From a virus, in UHGV virus genome UHGV-0335080: a stretch of 34,923 bases of DNA; one strand, 5' to 3'. The notes beneath the pieces were generated by a model that saw only the letters and a program-made list of their open reading frames with translations, made no database searches and was not told the DNA's origin. Both the position numbers and the translations under genes were made by a program. Each line of letters begins with the position of its first letter. Position 1 is the stretch's first letter. Shown here in pieces: positions 7,709 through 12,736 of this stretch.

Positions 7709-8365
7709 TCAGAAAATATCCCATCTGGCATCAACCACAACACCTACTATTTCGCAATCATTGTCCATTTCTATGATTGGATATTGTGGATTAAGGGGCT
7801 TTAGAAACGCCTTTCCCATGTCAGAAATATATTTTTTGAATGTTGCTTCATTGGTGGATTTTTTTCTGGCGATGACGTAACACCCTGAAAAAACTTCTTT
7901 ATCTGGGTTGACAAGGATCGACATTCCTTCAGGAAATGTTATTCCTACGGGCGAAGTCATTGAGTCTCCGTGCACTTCCAGCCAGAACCCCCTCTCACCA
8001 GCGTATTTTACAGAATGCCTCCAATTATCCTGATCATACATGTTGTAGTCATCACCAGAAGTTGCGAATAATCCTGCCTGAACCCAGTTAATTACAGGGT
8101 AAGAGTGTGCTGTGTCTCTCTGTGGGCAGCTCTTAACATTATTTTCCCAATGCTTATCTTTTTCATCTCCGTTCTGAAGCCACTGCGGTGAACACCGCAG
8201 TGCAGCTGCAACTTTAAAAAGGGTGTCACCGTTGAAACTTTTTGTAAGGCCTTGCTCGGCTTTACTTATTGCAACTCTGGTGACCCCAGCTTTTTTAGCC
8301 AACGCATCTTGTGTTAACCCAGCTTTTTGCCGTGCGTTGATGAGACGTTCACCTAAAGACTTCAT
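7709..8365 (-). CDS. cI: CI-like prophage repressor: N-terminal HTH plus C-terminal LexA-like S24 autopeptidase domain
   Basis: HTH_XRE motif (LTQDALAKKAGVTRVAISKAEQG); Ala-Gly candidate cleavage site (VQAGL); Ser in GDSM and downstream Lys (ARKK); GAGGAG RBS; track ORF trimmed to MKSLGERL. Confidence 0.9.
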   Translation of the reverse strand: MKSLGERLINARQKAGLTQDALAKKAGVTRVAISKAEQGLTKSFNGDTLFKVAAALRCSPQWLQNGDEKDKHWENNVKSCPQRDTAHSYPVINWVQAGLFATSGDDYNMYDQDNWRHSVKYAGERGFWLEVHGDSMTSPVGITFPEGMSILVNPDKEVFSGCYVIARKKSTNEATFKKYISDMGKAFLKPLNPQYPIIEMDNDCEIVGVVVDARWDIF

Positions 8366-8386
8366 TTTTCTTCTCCTCTCATGGCT

Positions 8387-8462
8387 GTTGATACTAAAGT
8401 AACAGAATTTCTTGATACTTTGGGTTCCTGTGGTTAACATCGTTGGATAACAAAGTATCTGG
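8387..8462. promoter_or_regulatory. Operator-like site cluster (OR-like) between cI and rightward genes, with candidate PR
   Basis: TGATACTAAAGTAAC (8391-8405), TGATACTTTGGGTTC (8414-8428), inverted AGATACTTTGTTATC (8446-8460); TTGATA-N17-TAACAT rightward promoter-like at 8412-8439. Confidence 0.45.
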
Positions 8463-8476
8463 TGTGAGACTAAAGA

Positions 8477-8704
8477 ATGACCCTTTATGAAATATTAAAA
8501 ATTCAATTTAAAACCAATGCCGCTATTGGTCGCAGGTTCCCAAAGAAAGGAAGGCCTCGTGGCAGTCAAGGTGTTGGAAAGTGGAAAACGCGAGGTGTTC
8601 CGGAGGATGTTGCCATTCTTTGTCATCTGGATCCGAGCATTCCATATACACACCCAAGTCTAGCGAATACAGAAGATGACAAGCCCACAGGAGACCAACA
8701 ATGA
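8477..8704 (+). CDS. Uncertain small basic ORF (75 aa) in the Cro position; may be noncoding
   Basis: Stop overlaps Rha start (ATGA), but weak RBS, no HTH and low-complexity basic composition; an alternative 48-codon ORF exists in another frame. Confidence 0.25.
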   Translation: MTLYEILKIQFKTNAAIGRRFPKKGRPRGSQGVGKWKTRGVPEDVAILCHLDPSIPYTHPSLANTEDDKPTGDQQ

Positions 8705-9408
8705 ACACCGCAATTTTTAACGGCAAAGCATCCATGACCAGCGTTGAGATCGCAGAGCTGGTGGGAAGCCGACCAGATAGTGTTAAGAGAACTATTGAAA
8801 CACTGGCTAAAAAGGGAATCATCCAATTTCCACAGACTGTGGAAATTGAGAATAAACAATCACTTGGGCCTCGCCGATTTTCTAGCGCGTATGTATTCGA
8901 AGGTGAACGAGGTAAGCGCGACAGCATCATTGTCGTCGCACAGCTCTGTCCTGAATTCACAGCTCGCCTGGTAGATCGCTGGCGCGAACTGGAAGAACAG
9001 ATCCGTAAGCCAATGAGCGAAATCGAAATGGTTGCCGCGATGGCTCTTGAAGCCGTTCGCCAACAGAAACGGATCACTCAGGTGGAAGAAAAAGTCAGCC
9101 ACGTTGCTGAAACAGTCGAGCAAATTAAAAAGGGCACTATTCGTGAGGGCTATGCCGGATATCGCCAACTGAAAGCAAAAACCGGTTTGTCAGATGATAA
9201 ATGCCGCAATCTGGTGAACGCCTATCAAATTCCTACAGACACACATGAGTTCATGACGCCGGACGGATTGTTGTCACGTCGCGCAATTGTTGCTGTGGAA
9301 CCGTTTATGGCTGCTTTTTATCGGGTTATGGAGGAAGCAGAACCGCGAGGGACTCGCTGGTATCACCCGAAAATGGGGTTATTTCAGGTTATTGGTTGGC
9401 AGCGGTGA
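8701..9408 (+). CDS. rha: Rha-family phage regulatory / antirepressor-like protein
   Basis: N-terminal motif MTSVEIAELVGSRPDSVKRTIETLAKKG typical of Phage_pRha; GGAGACC RBS. Confidence 0.7.
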   Translation: MNTAIFNGKASMTSVEIAELVGSRPDSVKRTIETLAKKGIIQFPQTVEIENKQSLGPRRFSSAYVFEGERGKRDSIIVVAQLCPEFTARLVDRWRELEEQIRKPMSEIEMVAAMALEAVRQQKRITQVEEKVSHVAETVEQIKKGTIREGYAGYRQLKAKTGLSDDKCRNLVNAYQIPTDTHEFMTPDGLLSRRAIVAVEPFMAAFYRVMEEAEPRGTRWYHPKMGLFQVIGWQR

Positions 9409-9435
9409 AAAAAAGCCGGGAGTAACCCGGCTCAC
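9409..9435 (-). terminator. Possible intrinsic terminator in minus-strand orientation
   Basis: GCCGGG-agtaa-CCCGGC hairpin (9415-9431) preceded on the plus strand by A7, i.e. followed by U7 on the minus strand. Confidence 0.3.
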
Positions 9436-9516
9436 TCAACATCAATAACGGGGAGCTGTTTCGCATAAAACGGCTCCGAAACATCCAAGAACAGTTCTAA
9501 AGATATCAGCAGCTAT

Positions 9517-10179
9517 ATGATCATTTCAAGACCAAATATTGATTCTGCAATTTCGGGACGTTACACTGTCTCCGCACCTTATAAAGCGGGTGCCGGGATT
9601 GGCGTCCTGAAATTGTCAACGGCGATGTATGACGCGCCAGCGTCTTTTTTATCGTCCGCATTTGCTCACATCCAGATTATGGTGGGCTGGGCGGGGGCAC
9701 CGAAAGGTGCGCCGGTCTCCGTTGACGCCGGTTACGCCAACCCCGTCCAGTTCACCACCAGTGAAATTGGCGTTTCCGGTGGTGGAAGTTTTTCACTGTC
9801 AACGGAGGCTGCCATCATGGCTACTGTCCTAACTTCCCCATTCCTAAAAATCGAAGTCGTCAACGGCAAGGCCGTTATTTTCTCCCTGCATGTTGCCTGC
9901 CATTTCAAGCGCATGCACCAGAACATCGTTGACAAAATCGAGTATCTGAACTGCTCACGCGAGTTTTTTACCCGCAATTTCATACCGGGTACTTATCACA
10001 TCTACGGTGACTCCCTGCGTGGTTATTACATCACCCTTGATGGTCTGATGATGCTTCAGCTTGGGTTAAGTCTGCGCACAATGCGGTACTACGAGAGCTG
10101 TATTGAAGCATTCCATGAGGCTGAAACCGTCCAGGGTCACTCCGCGTTCCGTCGTAATCAACGGGAGGTGCACCTATGA
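9517..10179 (+). CDS. Rha-domain protein with unrecognised Gly-rich N-terminal domain (220 aa)
   Basis: C-terminal Rha-like segment (KIEVVNGKAVIFSLHVACHFKRMHQNIVDKIEYL...); N-terminal about 100 aa paralogous to next gene. Confidence 0.65.
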   Translation: MIISRPNIDSAISGRYTVSAPYKAGAGIGVLKLSTAMYDAPASFLSSAFAHIQIMVGWAGAPKGAPVSVDAGYANPVQFTTSEIGVSGGGSFSLSTEAAIMATVLTSPFLKIEVVNGKAVIFSLHVACHFKRMHQNIVDKIEYLNCSREFFTRNFIPGTYHIYGDSLRGYYITLDGLMMLQLGLSLRTMRYYESCIEAFHEAETVQGHSAFRRNQREVHL

Positions 10180-11027
10180 TCCGCCACCAGCATATTGATT
10201 CTGCAATTCCGGGACGTTACACTGCTCAGGCACCTTATAAAGCGGGTGCCGGGCGTGGAAACCCGAAATTCAATATAGAGCACAACCGCGCTCATGCGGT
10301 TTTTTCGTGTCATGAGCATCGTTACACCCAAATTATGGTGGGGCGTGCAGGGCCAACTTCGGTTGGGCCGGGTTCTATGTTGACCGGTATTTCCACCCCT
10401 GTACGTCTCACCACCTATATGGTCGTGGAAAGCCTTGGTGGTGAGTTCATTGAATTCAACATAGGGGCTGTCACCATGACTACTCTCCCAACCCAATCTC
10501 ACCCTGAAATCACGATTATCAATGGTCGCGTTGTCACCACATCTCTTGCAGTAGCTAATTACTTTACTAAACGGCATGAGCGGGTTTTAGATAGAATTAG
10601 AAACCTCGAATGTTCCGCTGAATTTACTGAACACAATTTTGTGTTAAGTGAATACACCGACGCATCAGGCCGCAAACTCCCTTGTTACCAAATCACCCGC
10701 GACGGTTTTGCGTTTCTTGCCATGGGCTTCACTGGTAAACGTGCTGCCCAGTTCAAAGAGGCATACATCAACGCCTTTAACCTGATGGAGAAGAGTTTAT
10801 CAGGTGCCGATGCGTCTGATATGTCAGCTGTCGCACGAAACGCCAGAGGCGTATACCTGCATTTGCGTGAAATCCATCAAATCTGGACAAGCCAGCTTTA
10901 TCCAATGCTTAAGGCCGTTGAATCTCCGCTGGCTAGCAAACTGTACGACCGTGTTGGTGATGCTGTTTTTGGCGCTGCACTTGTTGATTCCAGGCTGAAT
11001 GGTTCTGACAAGGAGGTTCGCCCATGA
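10176..11027 (+). CDS. Rha-domain protein, paralog of upstream gene (283 aa)
   Basis: Rha-like segment (ITIINGRVVTTSLAVANYFTKRHERVLDRIRNLECSAEF...YQITRDGFAFLAMGFTGKRAAQFKEAYINAF); shared N-terminal domain; ATGA-coupled start with GGAGGTG RBS. Confidence 0.7.
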   Translation: MIRHQHIDSAIPGRYTAQAPYKAGAGRGNPKFNIEHNRAHAVFSCHEHRYTQIMVGRAGPTSVGPGSMLTGISTPVRLTTYMVVESLGGEFIEFNIGAVTMTTLPTQSHPEITIINGRVVTTSLAVANYFTKRHERVLDRIRNLECSAEFTEHNFVLSEYTDASGRKLPCYQITRDGFAFLAMGFTGKRAAQFKEAYINAFNLMEKSLSGADASDMSAVARNARGVYLHLREIHQIWTSQLYPMLKAVESPLASKLYDRVGDAVFGAALVDSRLNGSDKEVRP

Positions 11028-11218
11028 TTAGTTACGAAATCATCATCTCCACTACGGAATACAGAAACGATGTATCAGTTCGCACGGATGTATCTGTCTG
11101 GCACCGTCGCTATAAATCCAGAAAAACAGCGGAACTGAAAGCGGCAGAGATGTGTGAAACCATCTCAATGAAAGGTAGCCCGGTTAAATACGTAACTACG
11201 GCGGAGGTGCGTCCATGA
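11024..11218 (+). CDS. Hypothetical small protein (64 aa)
   Basis: Track ORF; AAGGAGGT RBS; ATGA overlap with upstream stop. Confidence 0.45.
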   Translation: MISYEIIISTTEYRNDVSVRTDVSVWHRRYKSRKTAELKAAEMCETISMKGSPVKYVTTAEVRP

Positions 11219-11439
11219 TCCGCCACATCGTTAATTCCCTGTATCACCGATACAACCGTTGCCCCCGTGTGGGGCAGTGGTTCGCCACCAGCAACGGTCA
11301 CGTTCTGCGGGTTTGCCTAGTCAACGCTGAAAGCCAGAAAGTCGTGTGCGAACTACAGGGGCGTAGCTACACCATCAGTTACCCTCTGGCGGTATTTCTG
11401 TCTGGAAAAATGTTTAAGCGTCTGGGAGGTGTGGCGTGA
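11215..11439 (+). CDS. Hypothetical small protein (74 aa)
   Basis: Track ORF; GGAGGTG RBS; start region repeats the 24-nt junction seen at 10163-10187. Confidence 0.45.
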   Translation: MIRHIVNSLYHRYNRCPRVGQWFATSNGHVLRVCLVNAESQKVVCELQGRSYTISYPLAVFLSGKMFKRLGGVA

Positions 11440-11735
11440 ACTGTTTTCAGTTTGTGTGCGGATGTGCTTTCGATAACCCGATTCAGCGCCTAATTATGTT
11501 GCGTGTTTTGATGTCGGGTTCTTCAGACGGTGAAGGCGAGAGAGTTATTGATCATCAGGTGCTTGCTGATTTCTGCTGTTGTTCTAAGCAAGCGATATTC
11601 AGGGAAACCCTGGCACTGGAAAGAGCTGGTTATCTTCATATCCGAAAAATTGCAACGCTTACTATTGATGCAAAAGCCAGACTACAACCTGCGCGTGGCT
11701 ACACAATTCTCATGCCGCGGAAGGAGGTTGTATGA
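11436..11735 (+). CDS. Hypothetical protein with possible HTH (99 aa)
   Basis: GTG start overlapping upstream stop (GTGA), GGGAGGTG RBS; segment QAIFRETLALERAGYLHIRK is HTH-like. Confidence 0.45.
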   Translation: MNCFQFVCGCAFDNPIQRLIMLRVLMSGSSDGEGERVIDHQVLADFCCCSKQAIFRETLALERAGYLHIRKIATLTIDAKARLQPARGYTILMPRKEVV

Positions 11736-12736
11736 GCCGTTACGCCCCCACACCGGAAGTTATGGCTATTGGTCAAATTAATATTTCCGGCAATGTTACA
11801 CCTGCGAACTGGTGGAAATATATTCGACTACCCAGTGGGCGTCCGGATGCGACGGCTATCGCTCTGCTTTCAGAGATCGTTTACTGGTACCGCCCGACAG
11901 AGGTCAGGGATGAGCACACCGGAGCGTTGCTGGGATATCGCAAGCGTTTTCAGGGCGACAAACTGCAAAGAAGCTACCAGGCGTTTGCTGAGCAGTTTGG
12001 TTTCGGGAAAAGGGAAACCGCAGATGCGCTGAAGCGTCTGCGCGATGCAGGGTTTATTACTCTGGATTTACGCACGGTGGAAATGCTCGATGGGGTGAAA
12101 TGCAGCAATATTTTGTTTGTCGGGATCAACCCACAGGCAATTGCGGCCATCACCACACCTTCTTCTGTTTCGCCAGAAAGTAACAGCAATAATGCAATCA
12201 GCGATACAGCTATTACGTTAAAACGGAACACCCCCCGACGTCATAACGGAACAGGGGATACGCCGAATGTTGATACAAATACAGAGATTACTACAGAGAT
12301 TACTACAGAGATTACAACGGAGACTAAAAACACTATTGATGCATCCGCTGACGCGTCTGCGCCAGCGCGTTCTGCCCGACAGGAATATTCACCGGAATTT
12401 GAACAGGCCTGGCAGGAATATCCCAAACGTGCTGGTGGCAATTCCAAGTCAGCAGCCTTCAAAGCCTGGAAAGCCCGTATCAGGGAGGGAATAAAACCGG
12501 AGACCATGCTTGATGGCGTGAAGCGGTATGCCGCCTGGGTACGTGCTACAGGAAATACCGGCACACAGTTCGTGAAGCAGGCCGCGACGTTCTTTGGACC
12601 CGATCGTCACTTCGAAGATTACTGGCAACAGCCAGCCGCTCACGGAGGTGGGCGACAGCGACAGGTCGATGTCCTGGCTGGCCTGGGAGCCATGTCTGAC
12701 AAATTCGGTAAATCCAGTAACAAATTGACATTCTGA
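11732..12736 (+). CDS. Phage replication initiation / replisome-organiser protein (O-like)
   Basis: Position immediately upstream of DnaC-like and DnaB-like genes; contains in-gene 12-bp iterons; GGAAGGAGGT RBS. Confidence 0.65.
   Translation: MSRYAPTPEVMAIGQINISGNVTPANWWKYIRLPSGRPDATAIALLSEIVYWYRPTEVRDEHTGALLGYRKRFQGDKLQRSYQAFAEQFGFGKRETADALKRLRDAGFITLDLRTVEMLDGVKCSNILFVGINPQAIAAITTPSSVSPESNSNNAISDTAITLKRNTPRRHNGTGDTPNVDTNTEITTEITTEITTETKNTIDASADASAPARSARQEYSPEFEQAWQEYPKRAGGNSKSAAFKAWKARIREGIKPETMLDGVKRYAAWVRATGNTGTQFVKQAATFFGPDRHFEDYWQQPAAHGGGRQRQVDVLAGLGAMSDKFGKSSNKLTF
12281..12328. repeat. Tandem 12-bp iterons inside replication initiator gene (candidate ori)
   Basis: ACAGAGATTACT x3 (one with 1 mismatch) plus one degenerate copy; encodes TEITTEITTEITTE. 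Confidence 0.5.

Follow-up and report, generated by a model that had tools for sequence, protein, structure and literature searches.

Three described systems come closest to the locus analysed here, which occupies positions 9517-11027 of UHGV virus genome UHGV-0335080 (a stretch of 34,923 nucleotides, hereafter the window) and holds two consecutive long open reading frames (ORFs) with Rha-type genes nested in them: the immI region of phages P1 and P7, the immunity region of the satellite P4 and the isrK region of prophage Gifsy-1. In immI, a promoter and the sites a1 and b1 are followed by the C4 antisense RNA and by a second pair of sites, a2 and b2, with b2 at the ribosome binding site (RBS), and the function encoded downstream is of the antirepressor type; the a' and b' segments of C4 set the specificity and covary with their targets, which is the basis of P1/P7 heteroimmunity. 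In all these points the window resembles immI, the antirepressor-type function being a putative one. Control of the immI type also involves a constitutive promoter and the processing of C4 from its primary transcript (RNase P); here the likeness is one of position, that of the -35 and -10 hexamers. The two differ in that in P1 a small gene of its own, icd, separates C4 from ant, that Ant carries an ANT/KilAC domain and not Rha, that the frame of icd meets a stop 11 codons upstream, which leaves P1 without a counterpart of the long ORFs with their 'Ash' leaders, and that Rfam scores the upstream element of P1 as c4-a1b1 and not as isrK. In the phage-plasmid N15, Ravin and colleagues reportedly described in 1999 an anti-immunity locus in which a small processed RNA, the CA RNA, controls icd/ant antirepressor expression via premature termination.

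The likeness to P4 includes the reading frame. In P4 an isrK-like RNA (seqA) precedes a C4-like RNA (cI, seqB), the order found in the window; the region also includes seqC, and sites complementary to the CI loop lie both upstream and downstream. A 199-amino-acid ORF with MMM as its first residues opens 5' of isrK/seqA, continues across C4/cI and has a kil-like nested gene as its last part; around the start of that gene the peptide is EAAIMAT in P4 and in the window alike. This ORF matches Phage_ASH over the full profile (E 3.8e-23). We take it to be the 199-codon eta, with kil nested inside. Forti and colleagues are said to have found in 1999 that only transcripts of the upstream promoter allow eta to be translated and that this translation prevents immunity-specific termination. 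The window has the same eta/kil-type layout: its long ORFs start 5' of the promoter and are in frame with nested genes whose RBS is the antisense target. In P4, however, the nested gene kil encodes a small toxic peptide and not a Rha-domain protein, the gap between isrK and C4 is about 108 nt as against 24 nt in the window, there is one module where the window has two, and the element is a satellite whereas the window is a lambdoid prophage.

Transcription from PisrK of Gifsy-1 has two outcomes, a terminated transcript, IsrK, and a read-through transcript, isrK-orf45-anrP. IsrK acts in trans, and downstream of it there is a processed RNA, STnc1160; translation of orf45 was demonstrated, anrP cannot be translated without it, and AnrP induces prophage Gifsy-1 (Hershko-Shalev et al. 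2016, PMC4825925). The nucleotide sequence of orf45 is conserved, its amino-acid sequence is not, and in S. dysenteriae orf45 is fused to anrP (PMC4825925). The window shares with Gifsy-1 the Rfam isrK family, a small RNA (sRNA) with a terminator and, presumably, read-through, and an antirepressor-like next gene; we infer from the positions that the AUG conserved at the 5' end of C4 is the equivalent of the first AUG in orf45 (nt 107). The differences are that orf45 is a separate gene of 45 codons with AUGA coupling, whereas the leader in the window is fused in frame and open from 5' of the promoter, and that Gifsy-1 has one module, near antQ; the RNA downstream is not presented there as a C4 RNA with a'/b' targets (PMC4825925). 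By comparison with these systems, we consider it highly likely that 9517-11027 consists of two tandem RNA-immunity modules of the P1 immI/P4 CI/Gifsy-1 IsrK type, each controlling a nested Rha-domain gene. This study established by computation that the RNAs belong to these families and that their structures covary, that the targets are complementary and covary too, that terminators are present, that the ORFs are conserved without constraint on their amino acids, and where the cassettes meet.

RNA modules, targets and specificity

Both long ORFs lie on the plus strand and carry an 'Ash' leader in frame with a nested gene: the first (9517-10179, 220 amino acids) ends in Rha1 and bears the RefSeq name 'ash family protein', and the second (10176-11027, 283 amino acids) ends in Rha2 and is named 'Rha family phage regulatory protein'. 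Four Rfam matches, one isrK and one C4 in each module, lie exactly beneath the two 'N-terminal domains' and fill them. The IsrK/seqA-like sRNAs are found at 9574-9650 and 10230-10306 (RF01394, the Hfq-binding isrK RNA; 62.2 and 61.6 bits, with a gathering score of 50), each also recognised by its fold, and end at intrinsic terminators that the terminator scan placed at 9631-9644 and 10284-10301, both followed by a T-run. Compensatory variants were found in the first IsrK hairpin among relatives. Immediately upstream, the same predicted sigma-70 promoter (TTGATT, 17 nt, TACACT) is present at 9539-9567 and 10195-10223, in the same register in both modules; its hexamers align base for base with the annotated -35 and -10 of P1 P51b (P1c4) and with the corresponding position in P4, that of PLE, and column entropy over the promoter is low among relatives. 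All of these elements are on the plus strand.

The C4/CI-like antisense RNAs follow at 9675-9762 and 10331-10418 (+). Both match RF01695 over the full length of the model (1-87), with 81.4 and 82.4 bits against a gathering score of 45, and fold into the family structure; the minimum free energies are -52.2 kcal/mol (z -5.1) and -44.5 kcal/mol (z -5.2). In an alignment of 22 diverse relatives that included P1 c4 and P4 cI, 99.3% of the cells were paired and 14 of the 27 pairs had changed on both sides. Slid alignments gave 32-49% pairing, and the observed values were reached in none of 500 shuffles. The conserved AUG of the first C4 RNA, at 9679, is the orf45-type start and is in phase with the ATG of Rha; that of the second is at 10335. 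Pairs of isrK and C4 are also present in the P4 cI region, in SfV, phiP27 and PhiR49_2 and in several Shiga toxin (Stx) phages including VT2-Sakai. In the Stx phages these modules lie in unannotated stretches: that of VT2-Sakai (AP000422.1, 17732-17917) is 5' of an ORF6N-domain gene, between ninE and roi, and that of Stx2a_F765 is 5' of an unfused Rha 'antirepressor'. Rfam models of C4 and isrK have been found to detect P4 CI and seqA relatives, with CI placed within a 'Bro network' gene (Mageeney et al. 2023, PMC10111431).

When P1 was searched for stretches complementary to C4, the hits coincided precisely with its annotated a1, b1, a2 and b2; each window copy has the equivalent four, in the order of P1 and with similar spacing, all on the plus strand. 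In module 1, a' (9734-9740, ACGCCAA) lies in a single-stranded junction of the C4 RNA and b' (9717-9726, CTCCGTTGAC) in its 12-nt loop. The site a1 (9599-9605, TTGGCGT) occupies the loop of hairpin 2 of the IsrK-like RNA, which also contains b1 (9615-9622, GTCAACGG). Downstream, a2 (9767-9773, TTGGCGT) and b2 (9798-9807, GTCAACGGAG) are exact complements of a' and b', and b2 overlaps the Shine-Dalgarno sequence (SD) GGAGG (9804-9808) of the internal ATG at 9817. In module 2, a' (10390-10396, TTTCCAC) and b' (10375-10383, CTATGTTGA) are likewise within the C4 RNA and a1 (10255-10261, GTGGAAA) within the IsrK-like RNA; b1 (10270-10278, TCAATATAG) pairs with one G-U pair, a2 reads GTGGAAA (10425-10431), and b2 (10456-10464, TCAACATAG) abuts or overlaps an SD-like AGGGG (10463-10467) of the ATG at 10476.

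The genes that start at these internal ATGs are both Rha-like. Rha2 (10476-11027, +, 183 amino acids) has clear matches to Pfam Rha (PF09669; E 1.2e-30, 106 bits) and phrog_821 (E 2e-105), and its AlphaFold2 model comprises a Rha winged-helix domain and a helical C-terminal part. Rha1 (9817-10179, +, 120 amino acids) is a marginal match to Pfam Rha, with 27.9 bits in the long ORF and 30.0 when read from the internal ATG (cut-off 29.9), and scores 35.6 with NCBIfam against a cut-off of 45.95. Relatives with 83-99% amino-acid identity are encoded in 80 loci. Among 108 unique relatives, 107 keep the internal ATG, and the one exception is due to a shifted placement of the start.

The two window copies differ in both a' and b', and their targets differ accordingly. 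The same relation was found on a larger scale among relatives, which were sampled via Rha homology and are mostly from E. coli: the 126 unique modules drawn from 164 related loci and reference phages fall into 33 a'/b' specificity types with covarying targets. Two or three modules occur in 48 fetched loci, a number that includes loci sharing a contig, and adjacent tandem modules differ in specificity in 53 of 54 pairs. Two tandem modules of differing specificity, as in the window, are thus a common natural configuration. Since a' and b' differ and the targets match them, each module should regulate only itself.

Two further complementarities were noted. A third b-type target in the Rha1 coding sequence (9858-9866, CGTCAACGG) was rejected: it shows no covariation with b' across types, is present in just some of the modules of the CTCCGTTGAC b' type and sits on conserved VNG codons, and we treat it as a coincidence. 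Between a2 and b2 lies the sequence GGTGGTG(AG) (9778-9784; 10437-10445), which could pair with the 3' strand of the stem that closes C4. The two strands covary in P4, in F765 and in part of the E. coli types, but just 5 nt pair in the GCCACC types; the pairing may form an alternative helix in the unprocessed transcript.

The repeat, the open frame and the nature of the Ash region

The initial annotation had described two paralogous ORFs with a C-terminal Rha domain, and the ORF listing and Pfam agree. It had also pointed to unusually high nucleotide identity at the 5' ends of the two genes. A direct repeat of 79 nt is indeed present (9536-9614 versus 10192-10270; 85% identical ungapped, 87.5% in a gapped alignment), but it begins at 9536 and 10192 and not at the ATGs, as the first 19 and 16 nt of the long ORFs are just 55% identical; their other segments are 51-66% identical. 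The repeat could be a product of recent gene conversion or duplication between the copies and owe nothing to functional constraint: the copies adjoin in the same orientation, modules join a' types to b' types in numerous combinations, a sign of recombination within modules, and the conserved block could be a crossover site. We nevertheless regard this as very improbable. The promoter and the first IsrK hairpins form the lowest-entropy block across relatives down to 49% overall identity, not just in these two copies, and the block coincides with the Rfam family and with the P1 promoter position. A recent whole-gene duplication, which had been suggested for the pair, is excluded by the Rha domains of Rha1 and Rha2, which share 35% amino-acid identity, and by a divergence that is strongly non-uniform along the genes. 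What stood up was the alternative offered alongside it, selection on the DNA or RNA itself, for instance as a translational control element, as the 5' stretch consists of the promoter and the 5' hairpins of the IsrK-like RNA. The peptide motif IDSAI.GRYT..APYKAGAG is explained by the promoter and first IsrK hairpin, and IQIMVG.AG by the conserved 5' end of C4, AUUAUGGUGGG.

The N-terminal region itself had been described as an unrecognised domain of the protein, whereas it matches Pfam PF10554 (Phage_ASH) with E 1e-18 and 2e-9 in the two long ORFs (67.9 and 38.4 bits, cut-off 26) and RefSeq names the first of these ORFs 'ash family protein'; no NCBIfam model matches the Ash part. Of the 120 top-ranking database relatives of the long ORF, almost all contain both PF09669 and PF10554. 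The fusion of Ash to Rha is therefore routinely annotated, the very observation that the initial annotation had said would speak against its proposal. Many of these database relatives are 341-496 amino acids long, being annotated with further N-terminal extensions, and several are named 'peptidase' by NCBI, which looks like a propagated misannotation.

Pfam, PHROGs and RefSeq all treat Ash as protein, a 2022 Stx-phage paper treats it as a protein domain of unknown function (PMC8951638), and it is again listed as a protein domain in PMC10111431. Were it a genuine N-terminal domain of Rha-type regulators, of unassigned function, the RNA matches would be secondary. Its frame behaves as this would predict, being open for at least 104 codons 5' of the Rha ATG in 113 of 113 unique relatives with stops avoided, and the start of module 2, which has a strong SD and overlaps the preceding stop, is probably translated. 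When amino-acid-level purifying selection and a fold were looked for in Phage_ASH, however, neither was found. Entropy by codon position is flat in isrK (0.59/0.63/0.50), in C4 (0.54/0.54/0.64) and in the promoter, in contrast to the adjacent Rha domain, which is periodic (0.63/0.48/1.00, measured on a joint alignment of Rha1- and Rha2-type relatives). In four unique relatives the 3' strand of C4 is read in another frame (PLYVSPP versus TPVRLTT) through deletions of 1 nt and 2 nt, after which the frame is restored; the peptide is altered and the RNA kept, and substitutions in the stems are compensatory for the RNA. In the AlphaFold2 model of the module 2 long ORF, residues 1-108 have a predicted local distance difference test score of 23-56, which predicts disorder, and the Rha domain one of 76-86, although the alignment was shallow. 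The same RNA module, moreover, precedes unrelated genes without a fused ORF, namely P1 icd, the ORF6N gene of VT2-Sakai and the Rha gene of F765, where the frame closes 8-11 codons upstream, and the Phage_ASH profile also covers the P4 ORF that lies over seqA/cI. The immunity factor of P4 is reportedly an RNA, in work of Forti from 1995 and 1999. We therefore hold a protein domain to be improbable.

The opposite possibility, that the long ORFs are pure annotation artefacts with an untranslated leader whose open frame is an accident of GC-rich structured RNA, seems to us barely credible. The RNA genes do account for the conservation of the sequence, stops occur in this frame in P1, VT2-Sakai and F765, and the ATG at 9517 is not preceded by an SD. 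Stops are missing, however, specifically from frame 0: 93 were expected under column independence and 4 were observed, all four being alignment artefacts, while the counts in frames 1 and 2 were near expectation. Stop codon alleles amount to 1 of 513 in frame 0 as against 22 of 503 and 26 of 500, or about 5%, in the other two frames (P about 3e-10). In addition, the distances from landmark to landmark vary by multiples of 3 only, frameshifts are compensated, and translation of orf45 over a C4-like RNA has been demonstrated in Gifsy-1 (PMC4825925). An open frame without amino-acid constraint makes it very likely that the leader is translated under some condition and that its amino-acid sequence is not what is selected; avoidance of stops is the expectation of the P4 eta/kil nested-gene model. 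To judge from these comparisons, the 'Ash domain' is the translation of RNA genes in the frame of Rha and not a protein domain.

Surrounding genes and cassette junctions

The modules are embedded in an E. coli lambdoid prophage. A 3.1-kb region around them recurs with 99.9% identity in many complete E. coli chromosomes, and 111 genomes contain 80% or more of it; among the strains that carry the prophage is E. coli THO-003 (NZ_AP022525.1, 2,223,779-2,225,289). Upstream lie a CI-like repressor of the LexA family (7709-8440, minus strand), a small ORF (8477-8704) and the gene at 8701-9408 (+), which is 5' of the RNA modules and outside them. The last had been called a canonical Rha-like gene, a label that we do not retain: its Pfam Rha score is 25.6 bits, under the cut-off of 29.9, it has no NCBIfam match, and BLASTP detected no similarity to Rha2. 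It is at most weakly Rha-like. Its best PHROG is phrog_63, 'anti-repressor Ant' (E 3e-46), and its counterpart in phage PhiR49_2 is annotated Roi; we refer to it as Roi-like or antirepressor-like. A GC-rich hairpin at 9413-9433, in the 108-nt gap between this gene and module 1, is recognised as an intrinsic terminator on the minus strand alone.

Downstream of module 2 are a small ORF of the orf64 type (11024-11218), a small ORF of the orf74 family (11215-11439) and, 3' of these, genes resembling replication initiators (replication genes at 11436-12736). Between 10176 and 11735, five successive gene junctions have a 4-nt overlap (ATGA or GTGA), which suggests unbroken translational coupling from Rha1 into the replication genes. 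Within the replication-initiator-like ORF at 11732-12736, positions 12280-12323 hold 3.7 tandem copies of a 12-nt unit, TACAGAGATTAC, encoding the peptide TEITTEITTEITTE; this iteron-like array may mark an origin inside the initiator gene, as in lambda O. Further along the prophage, at 17098-17303 (+), there is a full-length match to Rfam STnc100, a gammaproteobacterial sRNA (165 bits, gathering score 47).

A 24-nt junction made of an RBS and a start codon had been reported to recur in this region. It does, at 10164-10187 and 11203-11226 (+, 88% identity), and a weaker third copy that had gone unlisted is found at 11012-11035. In the first copy, the SD GGAGGTG and ATGATCCGCCAC form the start of the module 2 long ORF (MIRH...), which overlaps the stop of Rha1 (ATGA); in the second, an SD and ATGATCCGCCAC form the start of the orf74-family gene. 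The segment from module 2 through orf64 is thus flanked by two copies. In related loci the motif, GGAGGTGC..C.ATGATCCGCCAC, occurs 3' of the ends of genes of the Rha1, Rha2 or orf64 type and 5' of an orf74-family gene, which is commonest, or of another RNA module. The presence of the same SD and ATGATCCGCCAC between differing upstream and downstream cassettes supports the earlier proposal of a recombination linker for mosaic exchange. In PhiR49_2 this context holds just one module, and in phiP27 a gene of the module 1 type lies 3' of a different Ant gene. The junction is thus an RBS and a start codon common to different cassettes, and it is plausible as a crossover point for the building of tandem arrays.

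Proposed control of the nested genes and its bearing on prophages

In the model that we favour, that of two tandem RNA-immunity modules, the promoter inside each long ORF would give rise to a 77-nt IsrK/seqA-like sRNA ending at the intrinsic terminator, and read-through transcripts would carry the C4/CI-like RNA. The exposed a' and b' of C4 would pair with a2 and b2 just downstream; with b2 covering the RBS of the internal ATG, translation of Rha would be blocked, and transcription would probably terminate early. The same a' and b' could also pair with a1 and b1 of the IsrK-like RNA, which could therefore act as a decoy or activator, as for IsrK of Gifsy-1. Transcripts from an upstream early promoter, by contrast, would be translated from 9517 and from 10176, the latter coupled to the preceding gene, following the logic of P4 eta/kil: ribosomes would traverse the promoter, the terminator and the C4 region, so that termination would be suppressed and C4 control bypassed. 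The selective avoidance of stops and the compensated frameshifts support such a role of translation indirectly.

Several points weigh against this model. Promoter activity, termination efficiency, C4 processing and repression of Rha are presumed from homology, and we infer the role of translating the long ORF and that of Rha as an antirepressor or inducer; the names antirepressor and regulator come to Rha by annotation alone. The promoter hexamers agree with only 8 of the 12 consensus positions and a generic promoter scan reported neither pair, so that their assignment rests on positional homology with P1 P51b. The b' segments of both modules share GTTGAC, and some cross-talk is possible. The module 1 ATG at 9517 is without a visible SD and lies 108 nt past the previous gene, and the stop avoidance applies only to the sampled lineage. 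Finally, for the eta/kil mechanism reported by Forti and colleagues, what was checked on the P4 sequence is the anatomy of the ORF.

A broader reading, which we put forward tentatively and think somewhat doubtful, joins two ideas: translation of the Ash frame as a switch in lambdoid prophages, and orthogonal arrays as combinatorial anti-immunity controls. In the switch, ribosomes would read early-promoter transcripts through the IsrK terminator and C4 and so render them immune to RNA immunity, while transcripts from the internal promoter would yield the regulatory RNAs. In the arrays, two or three modules whose a'/b' codes are orthogonal, put together at the common 24-nt junction, would act as independent anti-immunity controls. 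If this were true, co-resident or superinfecting lambdoid phages might sense or exclude one another, and Phage_ASH would be the shadow of an RNA.

The underlying mechanism is already known from P1, P4 and Gifsy-1. What would be added here is the view of Phage_ASH as the translation of RNA genes, a frame kept open without amino-acid constraint, and the frequent occurrence of tandem modules of differing specificity; these are refinements and not a new system. They would call for a correction of the annotation of thousands of 'Ash family' or 'Ash/Rha' proteins, some called 'peptidase', in genomes of E. coli, Shigella, Salmonella and Stx phages, as the N-terminal segment of these proteins would be a regulatory RNA gene pair with its target sites. 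They would also give the region beside the CI/Cro switch of many lambdoid and Stx prophages a testable function, RNA control of an antirepressor-like gene, which would bear on prophage induction and hence on the release of Shiga toxin.

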